A DNA stretch of 31,276 nt from a virus (IMGVR_UViG_2534682222_000020:1-31276), one strand, 5' to 3'. Positions 22,704-30,226 are shown, numbered from the stretch's first letter. The notes: a model not told the origin generated them from the sequence alone. Numbers and translations are program-made.

Positions 22704-23402
22704 TTACACCTGATCAACCTCGCCGAGCGCCACCATAATCGCCAGGCGCTCAGCAGGCGGTAACGCTGCAAATTTTTCCTTCCAGCGCTGCGCCTTTCGC
22801 TTGATTCGATAGCGATCATTGTAATTTTTACCTGCAAAAGTATGCGAATAAGCGCGCCCCTCCTGGTAGTTCATCCAGATCTTCTCTGTCCTCACCCCGC
22901 CGCGCGTCATTGCCTGAAACTCTCGGGCGCGCCAGTCATGTAACATGCGGTCATAAAATCCTGACGGATAGCCCGATAAAATTACGCTGACGTTATCCGG
23001 GAGATCGCGTAAACGCGTCAGCAATCGTTCATGGTCTTTAACAGAATACTCGCACCGATAGCGCGCAGAGCTGCTTCGCGTTTCATGCAGATAAGGCGGA
23101 TCAGCGTAGATCAGCACCCGGCCAGCATAAGAATAATCAAAGCGCTCCAAAAACGTCACCGCGTCACCGACGTCAATAAACAGACTATCGCCCAGAGCAT
23201 CCAGAAATTCATGATTACTCTGGTTAAATGCCTCAATGGTCAGCGGATCAATATCAATCCCCCAACTGACTTTCGCCGGTGGCTTACGTAGCATGACAGC
23301 GCCACCGCCCAAGTGAGTTTCGATGTACGTGTCATGCGGTGGCATCTCGGCAATAATTTTTTGATAAACACCGCTCGCCGCTTTGCTTCCCAGATAGCTC
23401 AT
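22704..23402 (-). CDS. Orphan Dam-class (D12) N6-adenine DNA methyltransferase, short form, in cos-proximal cargo position
   Basis: ORF 22704..23438; preferred ATG 23400..23402 (MSYLGSKAA); motifs YLGSK, THLGGGAV (SAM binding), DPPY (catalytic). No adjacent restriction endonuclease candidate. Confidence 0.7.
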   Translation of the reverse strand: MSYLGSKAASGVYQKIIAEMPPHDTYIETHLGGGAVMLRKPPAKVSWGIDIDPLTIEAFNQSNHEFLDALGDSLFIDVGDAVTFLERFDYSYAGRVLIYADPPYLHETRSSSARYRCEYSVKDHERLLTRLRDLPDNVSVILSGYPSGFYDRMLHDWRAREFQAMTRGGVRTEKIWMNYQEGRAYSHTFAGKNYNDRYRIKRKAQRWKEKFAALPPAERLAIMVALGEVDQV

Positions 23403-23514
23403 AACTTTCTCGTTCCCAAAAAAACCAACCTGCAGCACCGCCTAAAATGACGTTGCTCGATAGAATGGCCAGAACCGTCAAAAGCGACCATGGCTGACCA
23501 TCTCACTCACTGCT

Positions 23515-26154
23515 TCAATCCTGTCTTTTTCGTTTAGCCGCCTTCTTCCAGCGCGTGACCAGGTCACACACCGCCACGTATTCAGACGTCGGTTTATCTT
23601 TCTCACCGGCACGCCATGCCTTCACTTCCTGCAACCGGCCATTATTCATGGCGAGCAGTCCGCCGCCGTGGCGAACGCGGGCACCGCCAGCAATCGACCT
23701 CACAACATCATCGCTGACGAAAATCCTGCAACTACGCAGCTGCGCGCCGATGCTGGCGATGGTTTCCTGGCTGACCCCGCCTTGTTTCGCAGCCTCTCTT
23801 TTCTGTACCTGCCGCAGCGCCGCTTCGGCTTTTTTCTTCTGGTATTCCGCAACTGCGGCGGCATAGTTATCCGCACGCAGCTCCGCTTCGGTCCGCAGCT
23901 GTTGTCGCCAACGCTGTTCTGCCTCTTCTGGTGTCAGGCTCATATCTTTCGCTGCGGCCACTTTTGGCCCCCACGTCAACGCAGTTTCATCATCAACAGA
24001 CGTGCGCAGACCGCGCGCGGTACGCTCGAAGGCTTGATCTGAGCTTTCGCGGCCAAAGTTTTTCAGTCTGCTGGTGATTTCCTGCCGTTGCTGGCGTGAA
24101 TATCGGCGCAAATCTTCGATATTCAGCGGAAGTTCTGTCATCTGACTGTCCGGGTGATCAATACCGGCATGCATCGTCGGTTTTGACGGTGTGGTACCAG
24201 CTGGCACCGCCACTTTTAACGGTGGTTTTTCGTCCGTTCCGGAGCGCCCCGTACAGTTATTGACAGAACTCCGAGGGGCCGCTGCGCGGCCTTCTAAGGT
24301 CAAAATCTCGACCGGCGACGGCTTACGCTTCGGCACAATCTTGTAATCGGTGGTGCGGGTAAAAATGACTGATTCGCTGCCCGTATAAGGGCAATAAACG
24401 CCAGTAATTTTGGCGACCGTGTCCCCATAATCATTGCCATTTTCGGTGAATTCATAGTTAAGCCGAACGCGCAGGCAATCGCGCGCGACAAATGGCCCGC
24501 CCTGAGCGTTGGTGTATCCCGGCCAGTCTGGCGCATCGGCTGCTGCCCGTGCCGCTTCCAGTTCCGGATGTAATACCAGCTCGCGACTACCTAACCGGCG
24601 CAATTCGCGCCAAGTGGTAACGGGCGCACCGCCAATCTGCTGAAACTGGCGGATATTCCAGCGTGAAGCCCAGGCGCGTACACGCTTTGCCATCTCCCTG
24701 ACCGGCTGGCCTGACTCAAGATCCACTTCACCATCCATGCCGTAGCCATCGATGTTTTTCGAGATGTATTTCGCGATATAGCCTGTTGCAGACCCAAATT
24801 GCTCGTCCATCGGCGTAACAGTAAAACGGTGCTCTGAAGCACCTTTCTCGTTACCGTCCTCTTTCATGGCGTGTTTGCGGAAAATGGCTGTTGCATACTC
24901 TACTTCCTCAGGACGGAGGAAAAGCAACAGATGCCAGTGAGGGGTTCCATCGTGGTGAGGCTCTGCAACACGAAAACCAAACGTGCGAATACCTTCGCGA
25001 CTCCATTTGGCTCTGACGCGCGCCCAGACTTTGCAAAGGTATTTTTGCGTCTGACGCGGGCTGGCGTGCTGGTACTTATCGTTTCGTCTGCCTGACTGGA
25101 CATGTGTTGAGTGGTAACGCGACGGCGCTGTCAGCGTGTAGAACATGCCAACCAGCCCCATTTCATTCGCCATATCCTCAAACCCGCGCATGCGCACCAT
25201 CAGCTCATGCCGCGCGATCTTCGGGTTGGAAACACTACCCATCACCTTATCCAGTAATGAGCTGCGCTCGCCGGTGTCCTGGTCTTCCAGCTCCATCGCC
25301 TGAAGGAATTCGAAGTTCGCTTTTTTCTGCGCAACCCATTCCCTGAAGCATGGATCAGAGCAATATGGTGAAGCCACTTTGCTGACATAGCCGGTCGCGA
25401 TCATAAGATGTTCGCGCCAGCAGTCATGGATACGGCGGATTTTGTTAAGCCACCATTTTTCGGAATGAAGTCTGCCAGCGGCACGCAGCGCCTCGTCGGC
25501 GTCCAACTCTTCATCGCAATAACGCGCCCATCCGGGGATCGCGATATTGAGCGTCGCCGCCTTGCTCGCTATAGCCCCGTATGCGTAAATCGACGAAAAC
25601 TCAAGATCGGATGTTTGTTCATACTGAAAATCAAACTCGCGCATAAACTCGCTTTTCATCAAGTTCGCAAGCTTATACGCCAGTCTTTTCAGGCGCTTTT
25701 TGTCCGCCCACGGCAGCAGGTGAAATTCATCACGCAGCGGAAGAAGAAGCGCCGGGAGCGTACTTTGTGGGAGGTATTGCGCGTTAACCGCATCAACACG
25801 GCGTAAGACATGCCGCTCAAACGTACCGAACAGCCAACGCACGACGTCTTTTGGCTTGCTGCGTTCGAGGTTTTCAAGGTGCTGCGAGAAGCGCTTACGG
25901 ATAAACGCCGGGAGCGTTTGCACCCGGCGGCGGAGGTAGTTAGCGCGGCCATTTCGATCAAATGCCTCACGCGCATCGCCCTCGCGCGGGCGCAATGGCG
26001 CGCGGTATACCGTATCAACCAGATCACCATAAGCGAGCGCCCTGCGCTCGCCTTTCGGTGTCAGATACTCAATGGCTGAACTTTCGGTTTTATGGGGGTT
26101 GATGGCCTGCCGTTTGGTATTCCATTCCCATGCTAAGGCGGTGAGATCTGACAT
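23515..26154 (-). CDS. A: Replication initiation endonuclease A (rolling-circle, HUH type)
   Basis: 879 aa; HUH-like motif TPHWHLLLF and tyrosine region GYIAKYISK; AGGTGG RBS before ATG 26154; last large gene of the early operon. Confidence 0.85.
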   Translation of the reverse strand: MSDLTALAWEWNTKRQAINPHKTESSAIEYLTPKGERRALAYGDLVDTVYRAPLRPREGDAREAFDRNGRANYLRRRVQTLPAFIRKRFSQHLENLERSKPKDVVRWLFGTFERHVLRRVDAVNAQYLPQSTLPALLLPLRDEFHLLPWADKKRLKRLAYKLANLMKSEFMREFDFQYEQTSDLEFSSIYAYGAIASKAATLNIAIPGWARYCDEELDADEALRAAGRLHSEKWWLNKIRRIHDCWREHLMIATGYVSKVASPYCSDPCFREWVAQKKANFEFLQAMELEDQDTGERSSLLDKVMGSVSNPKIARHELMVRMRGFEDMANEMGLVGMFYTLTAPSRYHSTHVQSGRRNDKYQHASPRQTQKYLCKVWARVRAKWSREGIRTFGFRVAEPHHDGTPHWHLLLFLRPEEVEYATAIFRKHAMKEDGNEKGASEHRFTVTPMDEQFGSATGYIAKYISKNIDGYGMDGEVDLESGQPVREMAKRVRAWASRWNIRQFQQIGGAPVTTWRELRRLGSRELVLHPELEAARAAADAPDWPGYTNAQGGPFVARDCLRVRLNYEFTENGNDYGDTVAKITGVYCPYTGSESVIFTRTTDYKIVPKRKPSPVEILTLEGRAAAPRSSVNNCTGRSGTDEKPPLKVAVPAGTTPSKPTMHAGIDHPDSQMTELPLNIEDLRRYSRQQRQEITSRLKNFGRESSDQAFERTARGLRTSVDDETALTWGPKVAAAKDMSLTPEEAEQRWRQQLRTEAELRADNYAAAVAEYQKKKAEAALRQVQKREAAKQGGVSQETIASIGAQLRSCRIFVSDDVVRSIAGGARVRHGGGLLAMNNGRLQEVKAWRAGEKDKPTSEYVAVCDLVTRWKKAAKRKRQD

Positions 26155-26160
26155 ACACCA

Positions 26161-26335
26161 CCTAAACCGTCACTGTGTCACCGGGCTGAACCTGGCGAGC
26201 ATCTTTTTCGGTATCACGGATAATGGTCGTACGGCTGTACCTGCCCCAGCTCAACACCTCCACCTCAACGATCCAGAAATGGCGGTATGGGCGAACGTCG
26301 AGCACGCGAGTGATCACTGCATCAACTGTGTTCAT
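26161..26335 (-). CDS. Small hypothetical protein (57 aa), translationally coupled
   Basis: Not in ORF track (below cutoff). Hand translation: MNTVDAVITRVLDVRPYRHFWIVEVEVLSWGRYSRTTIIRDTEKDARQVQPGDTVTV; ATG overlaps the upstream stop (ATGA at 26332..26335); stop 7 nt before A's RBS. Confidence 0.45.
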
Positions 26336-26538
26336 CGGGTGGCGACCTCCCGAATCTCTTCGATTGAGTCAAGCAGCAGTCGACGGCGGGTATGTTCGGC
26401 AAAGTGACGTTTGCCGGTGTCTTTCCGGTAGCACTCTGTCTTGCCGACTACCCACATGGATTCCGTCTGGTGCAACTTCTTGCGCTGCGGGCCGTCTTTG
26501 GTAATAACGATGCCCGTATGAGTCTTTTTAATGGTCAT
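26332..26538 (-). CDS. Small hypothetical early protein (68 aa)
   Basis: ORF begins at the Dam stop and ends in the ATGA overlap with the next small ORF; basic; no recognised motif. Confidence 0.45.
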   Translation of the reverse strand: MTIKKTHTGIVITKDGPQRKKLHQTESMWVVGKTECYRKDTGKRHFAEHTRRRLLLDSIEEIREVATR

Positions 26539-27503
26539 CAGAAAGGCTCCTGCGTTTCACAGCCCTTGGCAGGGTCGAAGCCTAAAAACATCTCGCCGTA
26601 AGTCGCATTCCCCATTACCGGCCCACAATCCGGGCAGCAACCACCGCCAGCACGATCGCAGCCATCACACACGCGAAGAACGCCAATAACCTCGCCAGCC
26701 ATATCGCGGCTTTTGGCGCTCACAGAGCGGCGGACACTCAGGGAGTGAAGGTTGAAGGCGGAATAAATTTCGCGAGTTTCAGGCGTGTCGCTGTTTGAGA
26801 TGATCGAGCGGGTGGCGTACTGACGGTTAACAGCCACAAGAGCCGCTACCAGAGCGCGATGATCAACCAGGGTAAAGGGTTTGCCGTAAGCGGTGAAATT
26901 GGCGGTATCGCTCGCAGGAATATAGGGCGGGTCACAATAAATCACCGCGTCATGCGCGAGTTGCATAACGTCAGGGATAGATTGGCGGAAATCACTATGG
27001 ATAAAGACCGCTTTTGTGTCGCTGGCCTTTTCGGCGAATAAGCGCATTTCCGCTTCAGGAAAGTAAGGCTCGGCATACTTACCGAATGGAACGTTGAATT
27101 CGCCCTTCTGGTTAACGCGATACAGACCGTTATAGCCATGGCGATTCAGATACAGGAAATACGCGGCATAAAGCATTGCTGCGTCCGGATCAGAGTCAGC
27201 CTGGCGGGCCAGTGAATTGAACTCTGTGCGCCGTCTGTAGTATTCCTCCGCACTGTTTCCGCCTTTGAAAGCCCAGCGGCAGGCGGCAATAGCGTCTTCT
27301 TTGCGGCCGGTTAATTGTCGGAAAAAATTAATCAGTGCGATATTGCTGTCGCAGAGAACGTAGCGGCGGTAATCCGTGTTCATAAACACAGTTCCACTAC
27401 CCACAAACGGCTCAATCAGACAATCCGCTTTCGGCAAATGCTTAAGCAGCTGCGGCATAACGCGGGTTTTTCCTCCCGCCCATTTGATTGGCGATCTGAT
27501 CAT
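26538..27503 (-). CDS. dam: Dam-family DNA adenine methyltransferase with Cys-rich C-terminal extension
   Basis: 321 aa; PIKWAGGK, EPFVGSGTV, LYLNRHGYNGLYRVN, FNVPFG, YCDPPY align with recalled E. coli Dam along its length; about 45 extra C-terminal residues with CDGC...CCPDC; ATG 27501..27503 overlaps the upstream stop. Confidence 0.85.
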   Translation of the reverse strand: MIRSPIKWAGGKTRVMPQLLKHLPKADCLIEPFVGSGTVFMNTDYRRYVLCDSNIALINFFRQLTGRKEDAIAACRWAFKGGNSAEEYYRRRTEFNSLARQADSDPDAAMLYAAYFLYLNRHGYNGLYRVNQKGEFNVPFGKYAEPYFPEAEMRLFAEKASDTKAVFIHSDFRQSIPDVMQLAHDAVIYCDPPYIPASDTANFTAYGKPFTLVDHRALVAALVAVNRQYATRSIISNSDTPETREIYSAFNLHSLSVRRSVSAKSRDMAGEVIGVLRVCDGCDRAGGGCCPDCGPVMGNATYGEMFLGFDPAKGCETQEPF

Positions 27504-27727
27504 TTGCGAAACTCCTGGTTGTAGGTTTCATGGGTCATGAGTCGCCACTGAGCGCCGCCGTTTTTGCTAAGCAAGCGCCAGCGACGGCCAATGCGGATCA
27601 CGAGATAGGCGTGCGGTTTGACGCGGGAGAAGTTGTGCTGACCACGTGAAAAACATTTCAGGGCGGCAATCGCCCTGGTGCATACAGGCAATGGCGCGCT
27701 GCAAACGATTGAAAGACGCGGATGCAT
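27500..27727 (-). CDS. Small hypothetical early protein (75 aa)
   Basis: ORF 27500..27739; preferred ATG 27725..27727 (MHPRLS...) with GAGGG RBS; basic, Arg/Trp-rich; stop overlaps the Dam start. Confidence 0.45.
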   Translation of the reverse strand: MHPRLSIVCSAPLPVCTRAIAALKCFSRGQHNFSRVKPHAYLVIRIGRRWRLLSKNGGAQWRLMTHETYNQEFRK

Positions 27728-27735
27728 GGTGGCCC

Positions 27736-28284
27736 TCACAATGTTTCAAGGTGAGGGGAGGTCAGACGTTGCCATATCTCGCAGGCTTGCTCGGCTTGAT
27801 AGGCAGCATCGGTCAACATATAGGTAGCCGTTGACCTACGTGGATGGGGGGCATAACCGGTAACGCCTGCCAGCATGATCAGAGAGGCAAGGCAACGCAG
27901 TTTGAATGCGACGAATTGATGTCCCAAATCGTGCCTTCTTGCCGCATGGATTAACCACTGCGGCACTCGAGCAGAGCCCACAGTCCAGCAATTCAACTCG
28001 GTATGCAGGGAAGCATTTTCGCGAATGAAGGAAAAAAGCCCCGCTACCGCATTAAGTTCAGTGCATGTCGCAGAGATAACCTCTGCTCTTTGATGGGCAT
28101 CTCCTTTAAGCAGCTCCAGCACTGCTTCTGGATCGATATATTCAACAGTGCGAAGGTCTACAGCCCGATAATATTGCGGGCCTAACTTTCCTGTTGATGG
28201 CTCGAAGAAAACACACTCAATAGCAAAGATTGGCGAATCTGGCGCTTTCCCCAGCGCTCGAATATCTAACATGAAGTTATTCAT
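27736..28284 (-). CDS. Hypothetical early protein (182 aa), possibly degenerate DEDD-type exonuclease fold
   Basis: ATG 28282..28284 with GAGGA RBS, ATGA-coupled to the upstream ORF. Weak motif resemblance only (AIECVFFEPSTG; Y-x3-D in YMLTD); function unassigned. Confidence 0.4.
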   Translation of the reverse strand: MNNFMLDIRALGKAPDSPIFAIECVFFEPSTGKLGPQYYRAVDLRTVEYIDPEAVLELLKGDAHQRAEVISATCTELNAVAGLFSFIRENASLHTELNCWTVGSARVPQWLIHAARRHDLGHQFVAFKLRCLASLIMLAGVTGYAPHPRRSTATYMLTDAAYQAEQACEIWQRLTSPHLETL

Positions 28285-28505
28285 TGTTTGTTATCCTCGT
28301 TAATGGTTAATTCGCGGCTTGCGATCCACCGCTCGACTGATGAATAAATCTCTTCTGGTGTGGCGCTTTCCTTTTTCAGCTGGCCGACAAAAATACGAAG
28401 CAACCCCAAAAGGTGGGCGCGTTCGTGTTTTCGTGCGTTGGTGCTTATCTCTACAAACTCCGGATCACTTATTTCGCCATCCAGCTTTATTGACTTAACC
28501 GACAT
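28281..28505 (-). CDS. Small hypothetical early protein (74 aa)
   Basis: ORF 28281..28526; preferred ATG 28503..28505 (MSVKSIKLDGE) with CAGGAGG RBS. Confidence 0.45.
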   Translation of the reverse strand: MSVKSIKLDGEISDPEFVEISTNARKHERAHLLGLLRIFVGQLKKESATPEEIYSSVERWIASRELTINEDNKQ

Positions 28506-28572
28506 GCAACCTCCTGAAAAAGGCAAAACGAATCCCCGGCAAAATAAATGCCGTTAATTTAAGCCTGCTTAA

Positions 28573-28845
28573 TTAGTGGTTAGGGCGAGGTTTTCTTTTA
28601 ACCTGTTTAAACAACCTTTCGTGCCAGTAATAAAGAAAATCAATAAAGGTCATTCGCGCACGCTCGTGATTACCTCGGATTGTTTTCTCCAGCCCGTAAA
28701 TAATCAGATCAATAGACGGGCTATCTGGCGCAATGATAATGCGATTTCCGTTTTTCAAAATTACTGTAAAACCCTGCTCCGCATTTTCTACCGCCTCGCG
28801 GATCAGCATTTCCCGTTCCCACGATGTTTTCTCTTCAGTAAACAT
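28573..28845 (-). CDS. Hypothetical early protein (90 aa)
   Basis: ATG 28843..28845 with AAGGGG RBS; no recognised motif. Confidence 0.45.
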   Translation of the reverse strand: MFTEEKTSWEREMLIREAVENAEQGFTVILKNGNRIIIAPDSPSIDLIIYGLEKTIRGNHERARMTFIDFLYYWHERLFKQVKRKPRPNH

Positions 28846-28862
28846 GTAAGCCCCTTTTCTTG

Positions 28863-29090
28863 TTACAAGAGTTTTTTAAATGCTCTTGCCAGGGTAGCCA
28901 GCACGCCTTTATTTATCTTTTTTGTATAAATAAAAGGTTTGCTCATTTCCTTAACAAAACGAACCTTATTAGGCTCCGGCTTAAAGAAACGCCCGTCCGG
29001 GCATTCAACCCAGCCCCGCGTATTACGGTAGTGTGTAACCTGACAACCATTTTTCAGGAGGCTTGCAAGTGATGGGATCTCTTCGTTCAT
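28863..29090 (-). CDS. Hypothetical early protein (75 aa)
   Basis: ATG 29088..29090; basic C-terminus; no recognised motif. Confidence 0.4.
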   Translation of the reverse strand: MNEEIPSLASLLKNGCQVTHYRNTRGWVECPDGRFFKPEPNKVRFVKEMSKPFIYTKKINKGVLATLARAFKKLL

Positions 29091-29102
29091 ATCGTATACC
29101 TG

Positions 29103-29276
29103 TTAAAGTTGCCCGCGTGCTTTGCGCTCTACTTCTTCCCGGCGCGCTTTAAATTCTGATAAGGCTTTTTCTCTTTTCTGCCTAACTTTCTTGCAGTGCA
29201 ACCTGATTAAAAGCTGAATCAGGCTTATTACTGCGATAGAAAAAATTAAGAGCCCAACAATCATTTCAAGCTTCAT
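29103..29276 (-). CDS. Small single-pass membrane protein (about 57 aa)
   Basis: ORF 29103..29285; preferred ATG 29274..29276 (MKLEMIVGLLIFSIAVISLIQLLI, one TM helix) followed by a strongly basic/charged tail. Confidence 0.45.
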   Translation of the reverse strand: MKLEMIVGLLIFSIAVISLIQLLIRLHCKKVRQKREKALSEFKARREEVERKARGQL

Positions 29277-29481
29277 ATTTTTCACCGCGCTTTAATCTAT
29301 CAATGGTCACCATTGCCTCTGCAAACGCAAAATCAATACCGAAATAGCAGCCGCCGTGCGTAATCTGATATCGCTGGCGGCTGTATGGTTTTTTGCGTGG
29401 GAGTTTCAGAATGGTAAAGCCACGGTAAAGGCTGGTTTTACTATTCAGCTGCGTCACCGCTCCGCCAAATCCACTTTTCAT
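29266..29481 (-). CDS. Small hypothetical early protein (71 aa)
   Basis: ORF 29266..29523; preferred ATG 29479..29481 (MKSGFGGAV...) with GGGAGGGGG RBS; first gene after cox. Confidence 0.45.
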   Translation of the reverse strand: MKSGFGGAVTQLNSKTSLYRGFTILKLPRKKPYSRQRYQITHGGCYFGIDFAFAEAMVTIDRLKRGEKYEA

Positions 29482-29507
29482 GTTCCCCCTCCCTGAAGCG
29501 GTTCGCA

Positions 29508-29780
29508 TTAAAGCCCCATCCACAACAACCAGGCATCACGCTGTTCTACCGGGCGGTTGTAATACGCCTCACGCACAGCACGATTGAACTCAGGGATGTA
29601 AACCCAGCGCTCACCGGCGCGTGCGTTCGGTTTGGTTGGGTCGCGCAGTTCAATCACTGGCAGCTTTCGGGCTTTGATCATTTCTTCTACTGCGGTCTTA
29701 GGTTTGCCGATCAGCTCGGCGAACTTCTCCACATGGACAGCATCAAGCGGATATTTGATTGCGTAATCGCTCGCTTCCAT
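29508..29780 (-). CDS. cox: Cox (excisionase and lysogeny-promoter repressor)
   Basis: 90 aa; FAELIGK..AV..MI...KLPVIE..DP....RAGE.WVY.P..N.......RP.E.RD.WL.W.GL matches recalled P2 Cox; divergent from C. Confidence 0.85.
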   Translation of the reverse strand: MEASDYAIKYPLDAVHVEKFAELIGKPKTAVEEMIKARKLPVIELRDPTKPNARAGERWVYIPEFNRAVREAYYNRPVEQRDAWLLWMGL

Positions 29781-29932
29781 CGTTCACGCTCCTGTTAGCT
29801 CGTGTTAATCTCGTAAGATCCAGCCCTTTCTAAACCGTTTGAAAACGTTCTAGCGGCTGGCTTTCACTCCTCGCAAGGTTCCATAAACGAACCTTGATGA
29901 GGCAAATCTAGTTCTAATTTGGAACTCTGTCA
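29781..29932. promoter_or_regulatory. Immunity switch region (expected face-to-face early and repressor promoters with operators)
   Basis: 152-bp AT-rich intergenic region between divergent cox and C; short inverted repeats gttc-N7-gaac (29911..29925), ggttc-N7-gaacc (29877..29893), and near-palindrome ctaaaccgtttgaaaacgttctag (29830..29853). Promoter hexamers not confidently assigned. Confidence 0.5.
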
Positions 29933-30226
29933 ATGACCTTTGAAGAGAAGCTAAAGCTGATCCGCAGTGCGGAAGAGATCAACCAAGCACAACTTTCTGA
30001 TATGACTGGAATTTCATTAAGTACGTTGAAGAAGATTGAGGCTGGGTATCACGATCCGGGCTGGAATGTTTTAAGCAAGATCACTCAACATCCCCGCTTT
30101 CAGAAATACACGCTATGGCTGATGACTGACAAAACCTCCCCGCAGGCTGGTCAGATTGCACCGGCCCTCGCGCACATTGGGCCAGACTCGCCGGAATCAG
30201 ACCAATCCGAGAAACAGACTGGCTAA
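29933..30226 (+). CDS. C: Immunity repressor C
   Basis: 97 aa; Q.T.P.F.KYTLW.MT....P..GQIAPALAH.G matches recalled P2 C repressor; followed by int on the same strand. Confidence 0.85.
   Translation: MTFEEKLKLIRSAEEINQAQLSDMTGISLSTLKKIEAGYHDPGWNVLSKITQHPRFQKYTLWLMTDKTSPQAGQIAPALAHIGPDSPESDQSEKQTG

Follow-up and report, generated by a model that had tools for sequence, protein, structure and literature searches.

Genes and signals between cox and A

The viral sequence IMGVR_UViG_2534682222_000020 has a length of 31,276 nucleotides, and this whole stretch is referred to as the window. The analysis covers its minus-strand early genes between cox and the replication gene A (window positions 26161-29481), encompassing ten open reading frames (ORFs) designated O1 to O7, Dam, O9 and O10. 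In a preliminary description of this DNA, these genes were put forward as the best candidate for an undescribed module. The comparison with related loci argues strongly for another reading, i.e., that the region represents an early lytic (Pe) operon from a P2/186-like (Peduoviridae) prophage located beside cpxP and is composed of a conserved backbone and three cassette slots instead of one module.

The first gene of the operon is cox (29508-29780, on the minus strand as are all genes of the operon). Its product matches PF10743 with an E-value of 1.5e-26 and is 51% identical to P2 Cox, and the ratio of non-synonymous to synonymous substitutions (dN/dS) is 0.03. It is followed by O1 (71 amino acids, DUF4761-like; 29266-29481), O2 (57 amino acids, membrane peptide; 29103-29276), O3 (75 amino acids, Fil family; 28863-29090) and O4 (90 amino acids; 28573-28845), a non-coding spacer of 67 nt (28506-28572), O5 (74 amino acids; 28281-28505), O6 (182 amino acids, with a Rv2179c-like DEDDh domain; 27736-28284), O7 (75 amino acids, RelE/ParE fold; 27500-27727), Dam (321 amino acids, a predicted N6-adenine methyltransferase; 26538-27503), O9 (68 amino acids; 26332-26538) and O10 (57 amino acids; 26162-26335). 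The last gene encodes the replication initiator gpA (879 amino acids; 23515-26154), which matches PF05840 (E 3e-104) and is 47% identical to 186 A and 39% identical to P2 A. From cox to A, the gaps between stop and start codons amount to +26, -11, +12, +17, +67, -4, +8, -4, -1, -4 and +7 nt. The overlaps comprise three of the ATGA type (-4; O5/O6, O7/Dam and O9/O10), one of the TGATG type (-1) and one of 11 nt, in which the start of O2 lies inside the end of O1. A Pe-like early promoter facing cox, TTGACA-17-TAGATT (29905..29933, minus strand), was found as a consensus match only (10/12 positions). It overlaps the divergently oriented C repressor gene at its start, a layout that is the same as the annotated P2 Pe/C arrangement. 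This divergent gene (29933-30226, plus strand) was assigned by a family match to a helix-turn-helix repressor, and the integrase gene starts from 30269. Rfam and tRNA scans of the whole window gave no matches.

All ten ORFs are protein-coding and under purifying selection, as follows from their dN/dS values, their overlaps and their Shine-Dalgarno (SD) sites. Each ORF has orthologues in 5-20 diverged related loci, and pairwise Nei-Gojobori comparisons with these orthologues (dS 0.2-2.6) resulted in median dN/dS values of 0.21 for O1, 0.12 for O2, 0.10 for Fil, 0.04 for O4, 0.21 for O5, 0.11 for O6, 0.08 for O7, 0.10 for Dam, 0.06 for O9 and 0.17 for O10. Counting cox and A, there are 12 start codons, of which 10 have an anti-SD duplex energy at or below -5.9 kcal/mol, compared to a mean of -3.55 kcal/mol over all 62 ATGs of the region. 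The small sizes of 57-75 amino acids and the weak SD sites of O2 and O3 (-4.6 and -3.8 kcal/mol) could suggest that some of the small ORFs are chance reading frames of a compact operon. The probability of this is practically negligible in view of dN/dS values of 0.04-0.21 for every ORF at this divergence, the match of every ORF to some PHROG family, the identical ORFs called by RefSeq/PGAP in a 99.6%-identical E. coli prophage and the recurrence of several ORFs in other phage lineages. The ORF sizes given in the preliminary description (71, 57, 75, 90, 74, 182, 75, 68 and 57 amino acids around Dam) were reproduced exactly, and the SD sites and several ATGA overlaps noted there agree with the ten strong sites and the three ATGA overlaps.

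Backbone genes and exchangeable slots

The E. coli prophage that is 99.6% identical to the region is that of strain PCP06171, where it is placed between the integrase gene and cpxP. Among 5,426 complete E. coli genomes, only 2 contain 80% or more of this region, and close relatives were found in Yokenella, Klebsiella, Raoultella, Enterobacter and Citrobacter. The comparison set consisted of about 30 loci (designated by L numbers), namely 22 loci on viral contigs retrieved with O6 as query, five genome loci retrieved with O7 and the annotated phage and E. coli records. Each ORF was mapped onto all of these loci, resulting in a presence/absence table and a gene-order listing. One of the five O7-query loci, the beta-proteobacterial match L033, was spurious when inspected.

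Nearly all loci have O1, O4, O5, O6, Dam and A in constant order, while O2, Fil, O7, O9 and O10 are variable among the about 30 loci. The backbone is thus cox - O1 - O4 - 67-nt spacer - O5 - O6 - Dam - gpA, and it is interrupted by three slots, which in the window hold O2 and Fil (slot 1), O7 (slot 2) and O9 and O10 (slot 3). Slot 1, the interval between O1 and O4, contains O2 and Fil, Fil alone, a DUF4754 protein or proteins of 125-134 amino acids, and O2 is only found in loci that also have Fil (12/12). Slot 2, between O6 and Dam, is empty or contains O7, O7 together with an ORF of 64-79 amino acids, or a canonical DnaQ-like exonuclease. Of the 21 informative loci obtained with O6 as query, 15 have O7 and 6 do not. 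The interval from Dam to A, slot 3, contains O9 and/or O10, Dcm-type methylases or other genes.

This mosaic pattern bears on the proposed undescribed module, i.e., that the whole cluster or an O6-O7-Dam core is a coherent anti-defence or host-takeover unit with cooperating parts. The ATGA coupling at the O5/O6 and O7/Dam junctions would fit such a unit, as would the location of O7 relatives beside adenine methylases in the unrelated phages SI7 and BZS1 and the homology of the Dam tail to a motif that precedes the active Rv2179c-like domains of long lambdoid proteins. The same holds true for the AT-rich composition of 28001-30000 (O1-O5 and cox; GC content of 0.44-0.48 compared to 0.53-0.59 across other prophage parts) and for the variable slots, which are usual for anti-defence loci. 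However, the parts are separable and occur independently across loci: apart from the six loci without O7, locus L014 has O7 without Dam, the SI7 early operon is without an annotated exonuclease gene, and four loci have O6 but a Dam without the tail. PADLOC-DB furthermore gave zero matches for the nine small ORFs, with Dam alone matching orphan/type II methyltransferase models. No known anti-defence family was recognized, and the layout can already be found in public phage records. A coherent module is therefore judged quite unlikely, and the backbone with swap-in slots is preferred. The preliminary description had also pointed to the operon as a site of takeover, anti-defence or exclusion functions. 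This agrees with a temperate early operon that encodes Fil and an orphan Dam, while PADLOC supports only the methylase. The exclusion functions of P2-like phages map to hotspots next to cos (PMC9122126), and lysogen-expressed exclusion functions are not expected in this operon because it is lytic.

Family assignments of the early gene products

About half of the ten small genes fall into known families. The preliminary description held that no ORF could be assigned, which applies to O2, O5, O9 and O10, as these belong to recurrent phage (PHROG) families without an assigned function, but not to Fil, O6, O7 and O1, which could be placed, and possibly not to O4. Not every ORF is orthologous to a characterized protein, and the idea of an undescribed module is deflated rather than refuted.

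O1 matches PF15958 (DUF4761) with an E-value of 2.3e-5 and 24.9 bits, which is under the gathering cutoff of 27, and phrog_2492 with an E-value of 7.5e-26. Its close orthologues are named DUF4761 by PGAP and UniRef, and O1 is therefore described as DUF4761-like; a literature search on DUF4761 gave nothing useful. In O2 (phrog_19198, E 4.7e-22), approximately residues 5-26 are hydrophobic, and the tail contains 12 K/R compared to 5 D/E, so that hydropathy and charge agree with the single-pass membrane peptide with a basic tail that had been proposed at 29103..29276. O3 matches PF10893 (E 9e-20, 70.6 bits compared to a cutoff of 25) and phrog_816, annotated as "cell division inhibitor", and hhalign aligned it to the 186 Fil family with 92% probability. 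By these profile matches O3 is Fil, a member of the phage 186 cell-division inhibitor family, for which the GenBank record of 186 Fil states that "overexpression blocks cell division".

O4 (phrog_12038, E 1e-55) has the lowest dN/dS of the ten ORFs and no Pfam match. Its homologues are all at least 67% identical and all from Enterobacteriaceae, constituting a narrow family. The AlphaFold2 model is of moderate quality (pLDDT 72.6, pTM 0.46) with an alpha-beta-beta-alpha-alpha arrangement, and a comparison of this model to the PDB gave a best E-value of 0.6, so that no fold could be assigned. O4 is possibly a distant relative of 186 Dhr: the O4-Dhr comparison ranks first among 57 profile comparisons when Fil-Fil is set aside, the Smith-Waterman shuffle p is 0.002, and O4 is located at the dhr position of 186, i.e., after fil and before a non-coding gap. 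O4 and Dhr belong to separate PHROG families. The following 67-nt spacer is nearly invariant over 21 distinct relatives and is more conserved than the flanking coding sequence. It contains a 5-bp hairpin, CGGCA(N7)UGCCG, followed by a U-rich tract, and its position corresponds to that of the annotated terminators of P2 and 186. The spacer also has TTTTGCC twice, and the SD site of O5 could be sequestered by a further hairpin.

O5 matches phrog_12723 (E 2e-40), and its phage matches are only found among Klebsiella Peduoviridae. A relationship to DUF2732 (P2/186 orf80) was considered and rejected, as hhalign gave 2.6% and Smith-Waterman alignment was no better than shuffles.

O6 contains a PF16473 domain (E 1.3e-17, 64.5 bits compared to a cutoff of 27) with residues 2-171 aligned on profile positions 1-177. 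A library-wide phmmer search resulted in 171 relatives, and 92 full-length representatives were aligned. The catalytic residues D-E-D-H-D are present in 85 of these 92 distant representatives, while O6 has D7-R9-V107-T154-D159. Three of the five catalytic residues are thereby changed (E9 to R, D107 to V and H154 to T), while D7, W100 and the L-x-D-A-x-x-Q-A motif are kept, which bears out the earlier observation of a 182-amino-acid protein with only weak exonuclease-like motifs as a domain with a degenerate active site. E9 is missing in every collected member of the O6 clade. Its loss, to R or I, co-varies exactly with the exchange of G23 to E in a neighbouring segment ("AIGAV" to "AIECV"), and a Glu at position 23 occurs only in representatives without E9. 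Because of this exact co-variation, the O6 site may be rewired, with a metal ligand perhaps moved to E23, rather than simply dead. The alignment makes a conventional exonuclease unlikely, and the dN/dS of 0.11 suggests some retained role in binding or altered chemistry. In further P2-like prophages, alleles of the active type (P0060, P0150) are found at the syntenic position of O6. Active Rv2179c-like relatives are often the C-terminal domain of proteins of 500-900 amino acids that bear the RecE N-terminal region. In locus L026, a canonical DnaQ-like exonuclease of 233 amino acids (LDTETTGL ... HRALYDC; L026:5094-5795, plus strand) lies in slot 2 right after the degenerate O6. As a candidate relative of O6, the DnaQ-like 186 orf82 gave no signal by BLASTP or hhalign. 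Sequence and profile searches of the PDB with O6, O7, O9 and O10 gave nothing meaningful, and neither did a literature search on Rv2179c in phages give anything useful.

Dam matches PF02086 (E 1.6e-57) and TIGR00571 (246 bits compared to a cutoff of 115), PADLOC labels it "orphan MTase", and its translation contains the S-adenosylmethionine-binding motif EPFVGSG (FxGxG) and the catalytic motif CDPPY (DPPY). Judged by these motifs it is a D12-class orphan N6-adenine methyltransferase with predicted GATC specificity. Its Cys-rich tail of about 45 amino acids (residues 277-321; 26541-26675, minus strand) shows the pattern CxxC-x7-CCPDCGPVMGNATY and is 63% identical over 30 amino acids to an internal motif of lambdoid proteins of 539-823 amino acids (P0164, P0168, P0174), in which this motif is located 70-90 residues upstream of the active Rv2179c-like exonuclease domains. 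The tail also matches the RecE model at positions 526-555. It is a separable add-on, being absent in L007, L009, L015 and L026, the four loci mentioned above. Just downstream of gpA (22704-23438, minus strand), at the position of the P2 old/tin hotspot, lies the gene for another D12-class adenine methylase, which contains an ADPPY motif. This methylase shows a partial Pfam match (E 6.7e-5), its orthologue is named "DNA adenine methylase" by PGAP, and the phage therefore encodes two N6-adenine methylases.

O9 (phrog_1226, E 1e-33) has no Pfam or PDB match and is mobile between P2-like and lambdoid phages, with 77% identity to a small ORF encoded by Stx2a lambdoid phages. In one record, the Stx2a phage VT2phi_272, the homologue (L114:3501-3704) starts 4 nt before the end of a gene similar to phosphoadenosine-phosphosulfate (PAPS) reductase. 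As O9 is coupled to Dam in the window and overlaps the end of this gene in VT2phi_272, it may travel with DNA-modification enzymes; in 186, the PAPS-reductase-like orf84 lies directly before A. The name DUF4222, given by UniRef to one cluster member, was not reproduced by Pfam even at E = 10. O10 matches phrog_8110 (E 8e-9). Its PDB matches to HisF proved to be a short chance motif, and a Dam-O10 fusion suggested by a cluster listing was a clustering artefact, as P0407 contains no O10 sequence. Smith-Waterman and hhalign comparisons of O9 and O10 with DUF5405, the DksA-like protein and P2 orf91 gave no signal. Longer O10 variants (L013, L019, L020, L022, L025, L031) end with ...DFADEDELPF, a tail missing from the O10 of the window, and unrelated 66-amino-acid ORFs in slot 3 after Dam (L007, L015) end with D(D/E)GVPF. 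The C-terminal tail of the E. coli single-stranded DNA-binding protein reads ...DFDDDIPF, and the tails of the O10 variants and of the 66-amino-acid ORFs resemble it. Dam of the window ends with ...ETQEPF. With 879 amino acids, gpA is longer than P2 A (761) and 186 A (694); the Pfam GPA domain covers residues 155-471, the BLAST similarity to P2/186 A ends near residue 646, and a C-terminal extension of about 230 amino acids (about 647-879; 23515-24220, minus strand) has no assignment. This extension occurs in a phage without a P2 gpB homologue.

O7 shows the RelE/ParE fold and a Pfam ParE_like match, and its residues R51, K55, H66 and Y69 are invariant. Its relatives are found in the order Dam-O7-Dcm in SI7 and near a MT-A70 methylase in the Serratia phage BZS1, and homologues occur as solo genes in other phages such as Sortsne. 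Fold and Pfam match would also be expected if O7 were the toxin of a type II toxin-antitoxin pair acting in addiction or abortive infection with a neighbour gene as antitoxin, and in some relatives an ORF of 64-79 amino acids lies directly 3' of O7, in the order of HigB-HigA. However, this ORF has no PHROG match and is not present in the window. No antitoxin gene adjoins O7, as O6 lies 8 nt upstream and Dam directly follows with an ATGA overlap. O6 and Dam are both kept in loci without O7 and therefore are not dedicated antitoxins. In addition, O7 lies in a lytic operon that is repressed in lysogens, and its distant relatives, including that of Sortsne, are solo genes. A toxin-antitoxin pair is hence regarded as very improbable. 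The closest functional analogy for O7 is T4 RegB, as both are early phage proteins of the RelE fold without an antitoxin. RegB is an early phage RNase with RelE/YoeB fold and no known antitoxin that inactivates mRNAs (PMC3014915).

Proposed working of the operon

When the C repressor is lifted, one Pe transcript would be formed and translated by coupled ribosomes. Cox would set the switch and act in excision. Together with Cox, the proximal, AT-richer part would serve host takeover, with Fil blocking division, O2 possibly as its membrane partner and O4 possibly inhibiting host replication as Dhr does. The distal genes would encode DNA-handling accessories, i.e., O5/O6 and Dam, which would methylate GATC on phage DNA, while O7, lacking an antitoxin, may cleave mRNA on the ribosome in the manner of T4 RegB. 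Finally, gpA would start rolling-circle replication. The data establish the reality of the genes, their coupling, their family and fold memberships and the mosaic pattern, while every biochemical role in this scheme is inferred, that of Fil via the phage 186 phenotype.

Several points weigh against this reading. The model of a single Pe transcript is borrowed by analogy from P2 and 186. Among the cluster genes, characterized relatives exist only for Fil and Dam, O3 is only 31% identical to 186 Fil, and O1, O2, O5, O9 and O10 carry no fold or function assignment. The match of O4 to the 186 Dhr family is weak (hhalign probability 39%, P 3e-4, 29 aligned columns). The O4-O5 spacer is not convincing as a terminator, as it fails the terminator scan on the coding strand and folds no more stably than shuffled sequences. 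For O7, no residue-level alignment to the solved toxins RelE and YoeB was obtained, so that the catalytic residues are unmapped, and given this, O7 may be a non-catalytic binder. A comparison of the O7 profile with E. coli RelE and YoeB likewise gave no alignment. An active mRNA nuclease and a non-catalytic RelE-fold binder are accordingly seen as equally plausible for O7, each of them possible though short of probable, and the remainder falls to other possibilities.

A more far-reaching reading takes O7 and O6 as new functional types concealed by routine annotations. O7 would be an antitoxin-less early nuclease of the RelE/HigB type that reprograms or stops translation in analogy to RegB and that has spread singly into many phage lineages, often beside DNA methylases. 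O6 would be a rewired DEDDh domain, a binder or an enzyme with altered chemistry, which lost E9, the Exo II Asp and the general-base His, gained E23 and is kept under strong selection where sister phages have an active enzyme. This reading is considered rather unlikely. The solo RelE-fold gene identified in the lytic operon and the degenerate O6 are the best leads of the locus. Should O7 turn out to act as an early RNase, or O6 to be an exonuclease domain put to a new use, the few host-takeover tools known from P2-like phages would be extended. The preferred reading as an operon of backbone and slots mainly provides a cleaner annotation of a common Enterobacteriaceae prophage type (E. coli, Klebsiella, Enterobacter, Citrobacter, Yokenella). 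The fixed early genes are now told apart from swap-in cassettes, and the label "3'-5' exonuclease" is corrected for O6, which is without three of the five catalytic residues. The layout was already public at the sequence level. The result is useful yet unsurprising.

Comparison with known early operons

The order of the 186 early operon, apl-cII-fil-dhr-tR1-orf80-orf81-orf82-orf83-orf84-A, is paralleled by the window. In both, the switch gene at the front is followed by a homologue of Fil, by a small gene in the place of dhr and by a non-coding break, then by non-essential accessories of DNA metabolism, including a DEDD-type exonuclease-like gene and an enzyme of the DNA-modification type, and then by gpA. 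The translational coupling into A noted for 186 is seen in the window, too. Ever since the sequencing of 186, the early accessory genes of such phages have carried annotations as non-essential and of unknown function. In contrast to 186, the window is without CII, its first gene is of the P2-like Cox type and not Apl, the exonuclease-like gene belongs to PF16473 and not to the DnaQ-like orf82, and O5 is not a DUF2732 protein. Moreover, Dam replaces the PAPS-reductase-like orf84, the genes for the DksA-like and DUF5405 proteins are missing, and O1, O2, O7, O9 and O10 are extra.

The P2 order cox-orf78-B-terminator-orf80-83-A is paralleled as well. Here the likeness extends to Cox and A at the identities given above, to the divergent C repressor and integrase and to a non-coding break after the first block. 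The comparison with P2 orf78-83 and B proposed in the preliminary description revealed no detectable relatives: for P2 gpB (helicase-loader), orf78 and P2/186 orf80-83, no significant relative was found in the window by BLASTP, Smith-Waterman alignment with shuffling or hhalign. The backbone genes of Klebsiella ST16-OXA48phi5.4 and 3LV2017 agree with those of the window in kind and order and are labelled as "hypothetical protein", "exoribonuclease" or "exonuclease" and "DNA methyltransferase". Salmonella SI7 has a shorter version, cox-hyp-hyp-Dam-O7-Dcm-A, in which hyp denotes a hypothetical protein. Unlike the window, ST16-OXA48phi5.4, 3LV2017 and SI7 are without O2/Fil and O9 and have DUF4754 or 125-amino-acid genes instead.

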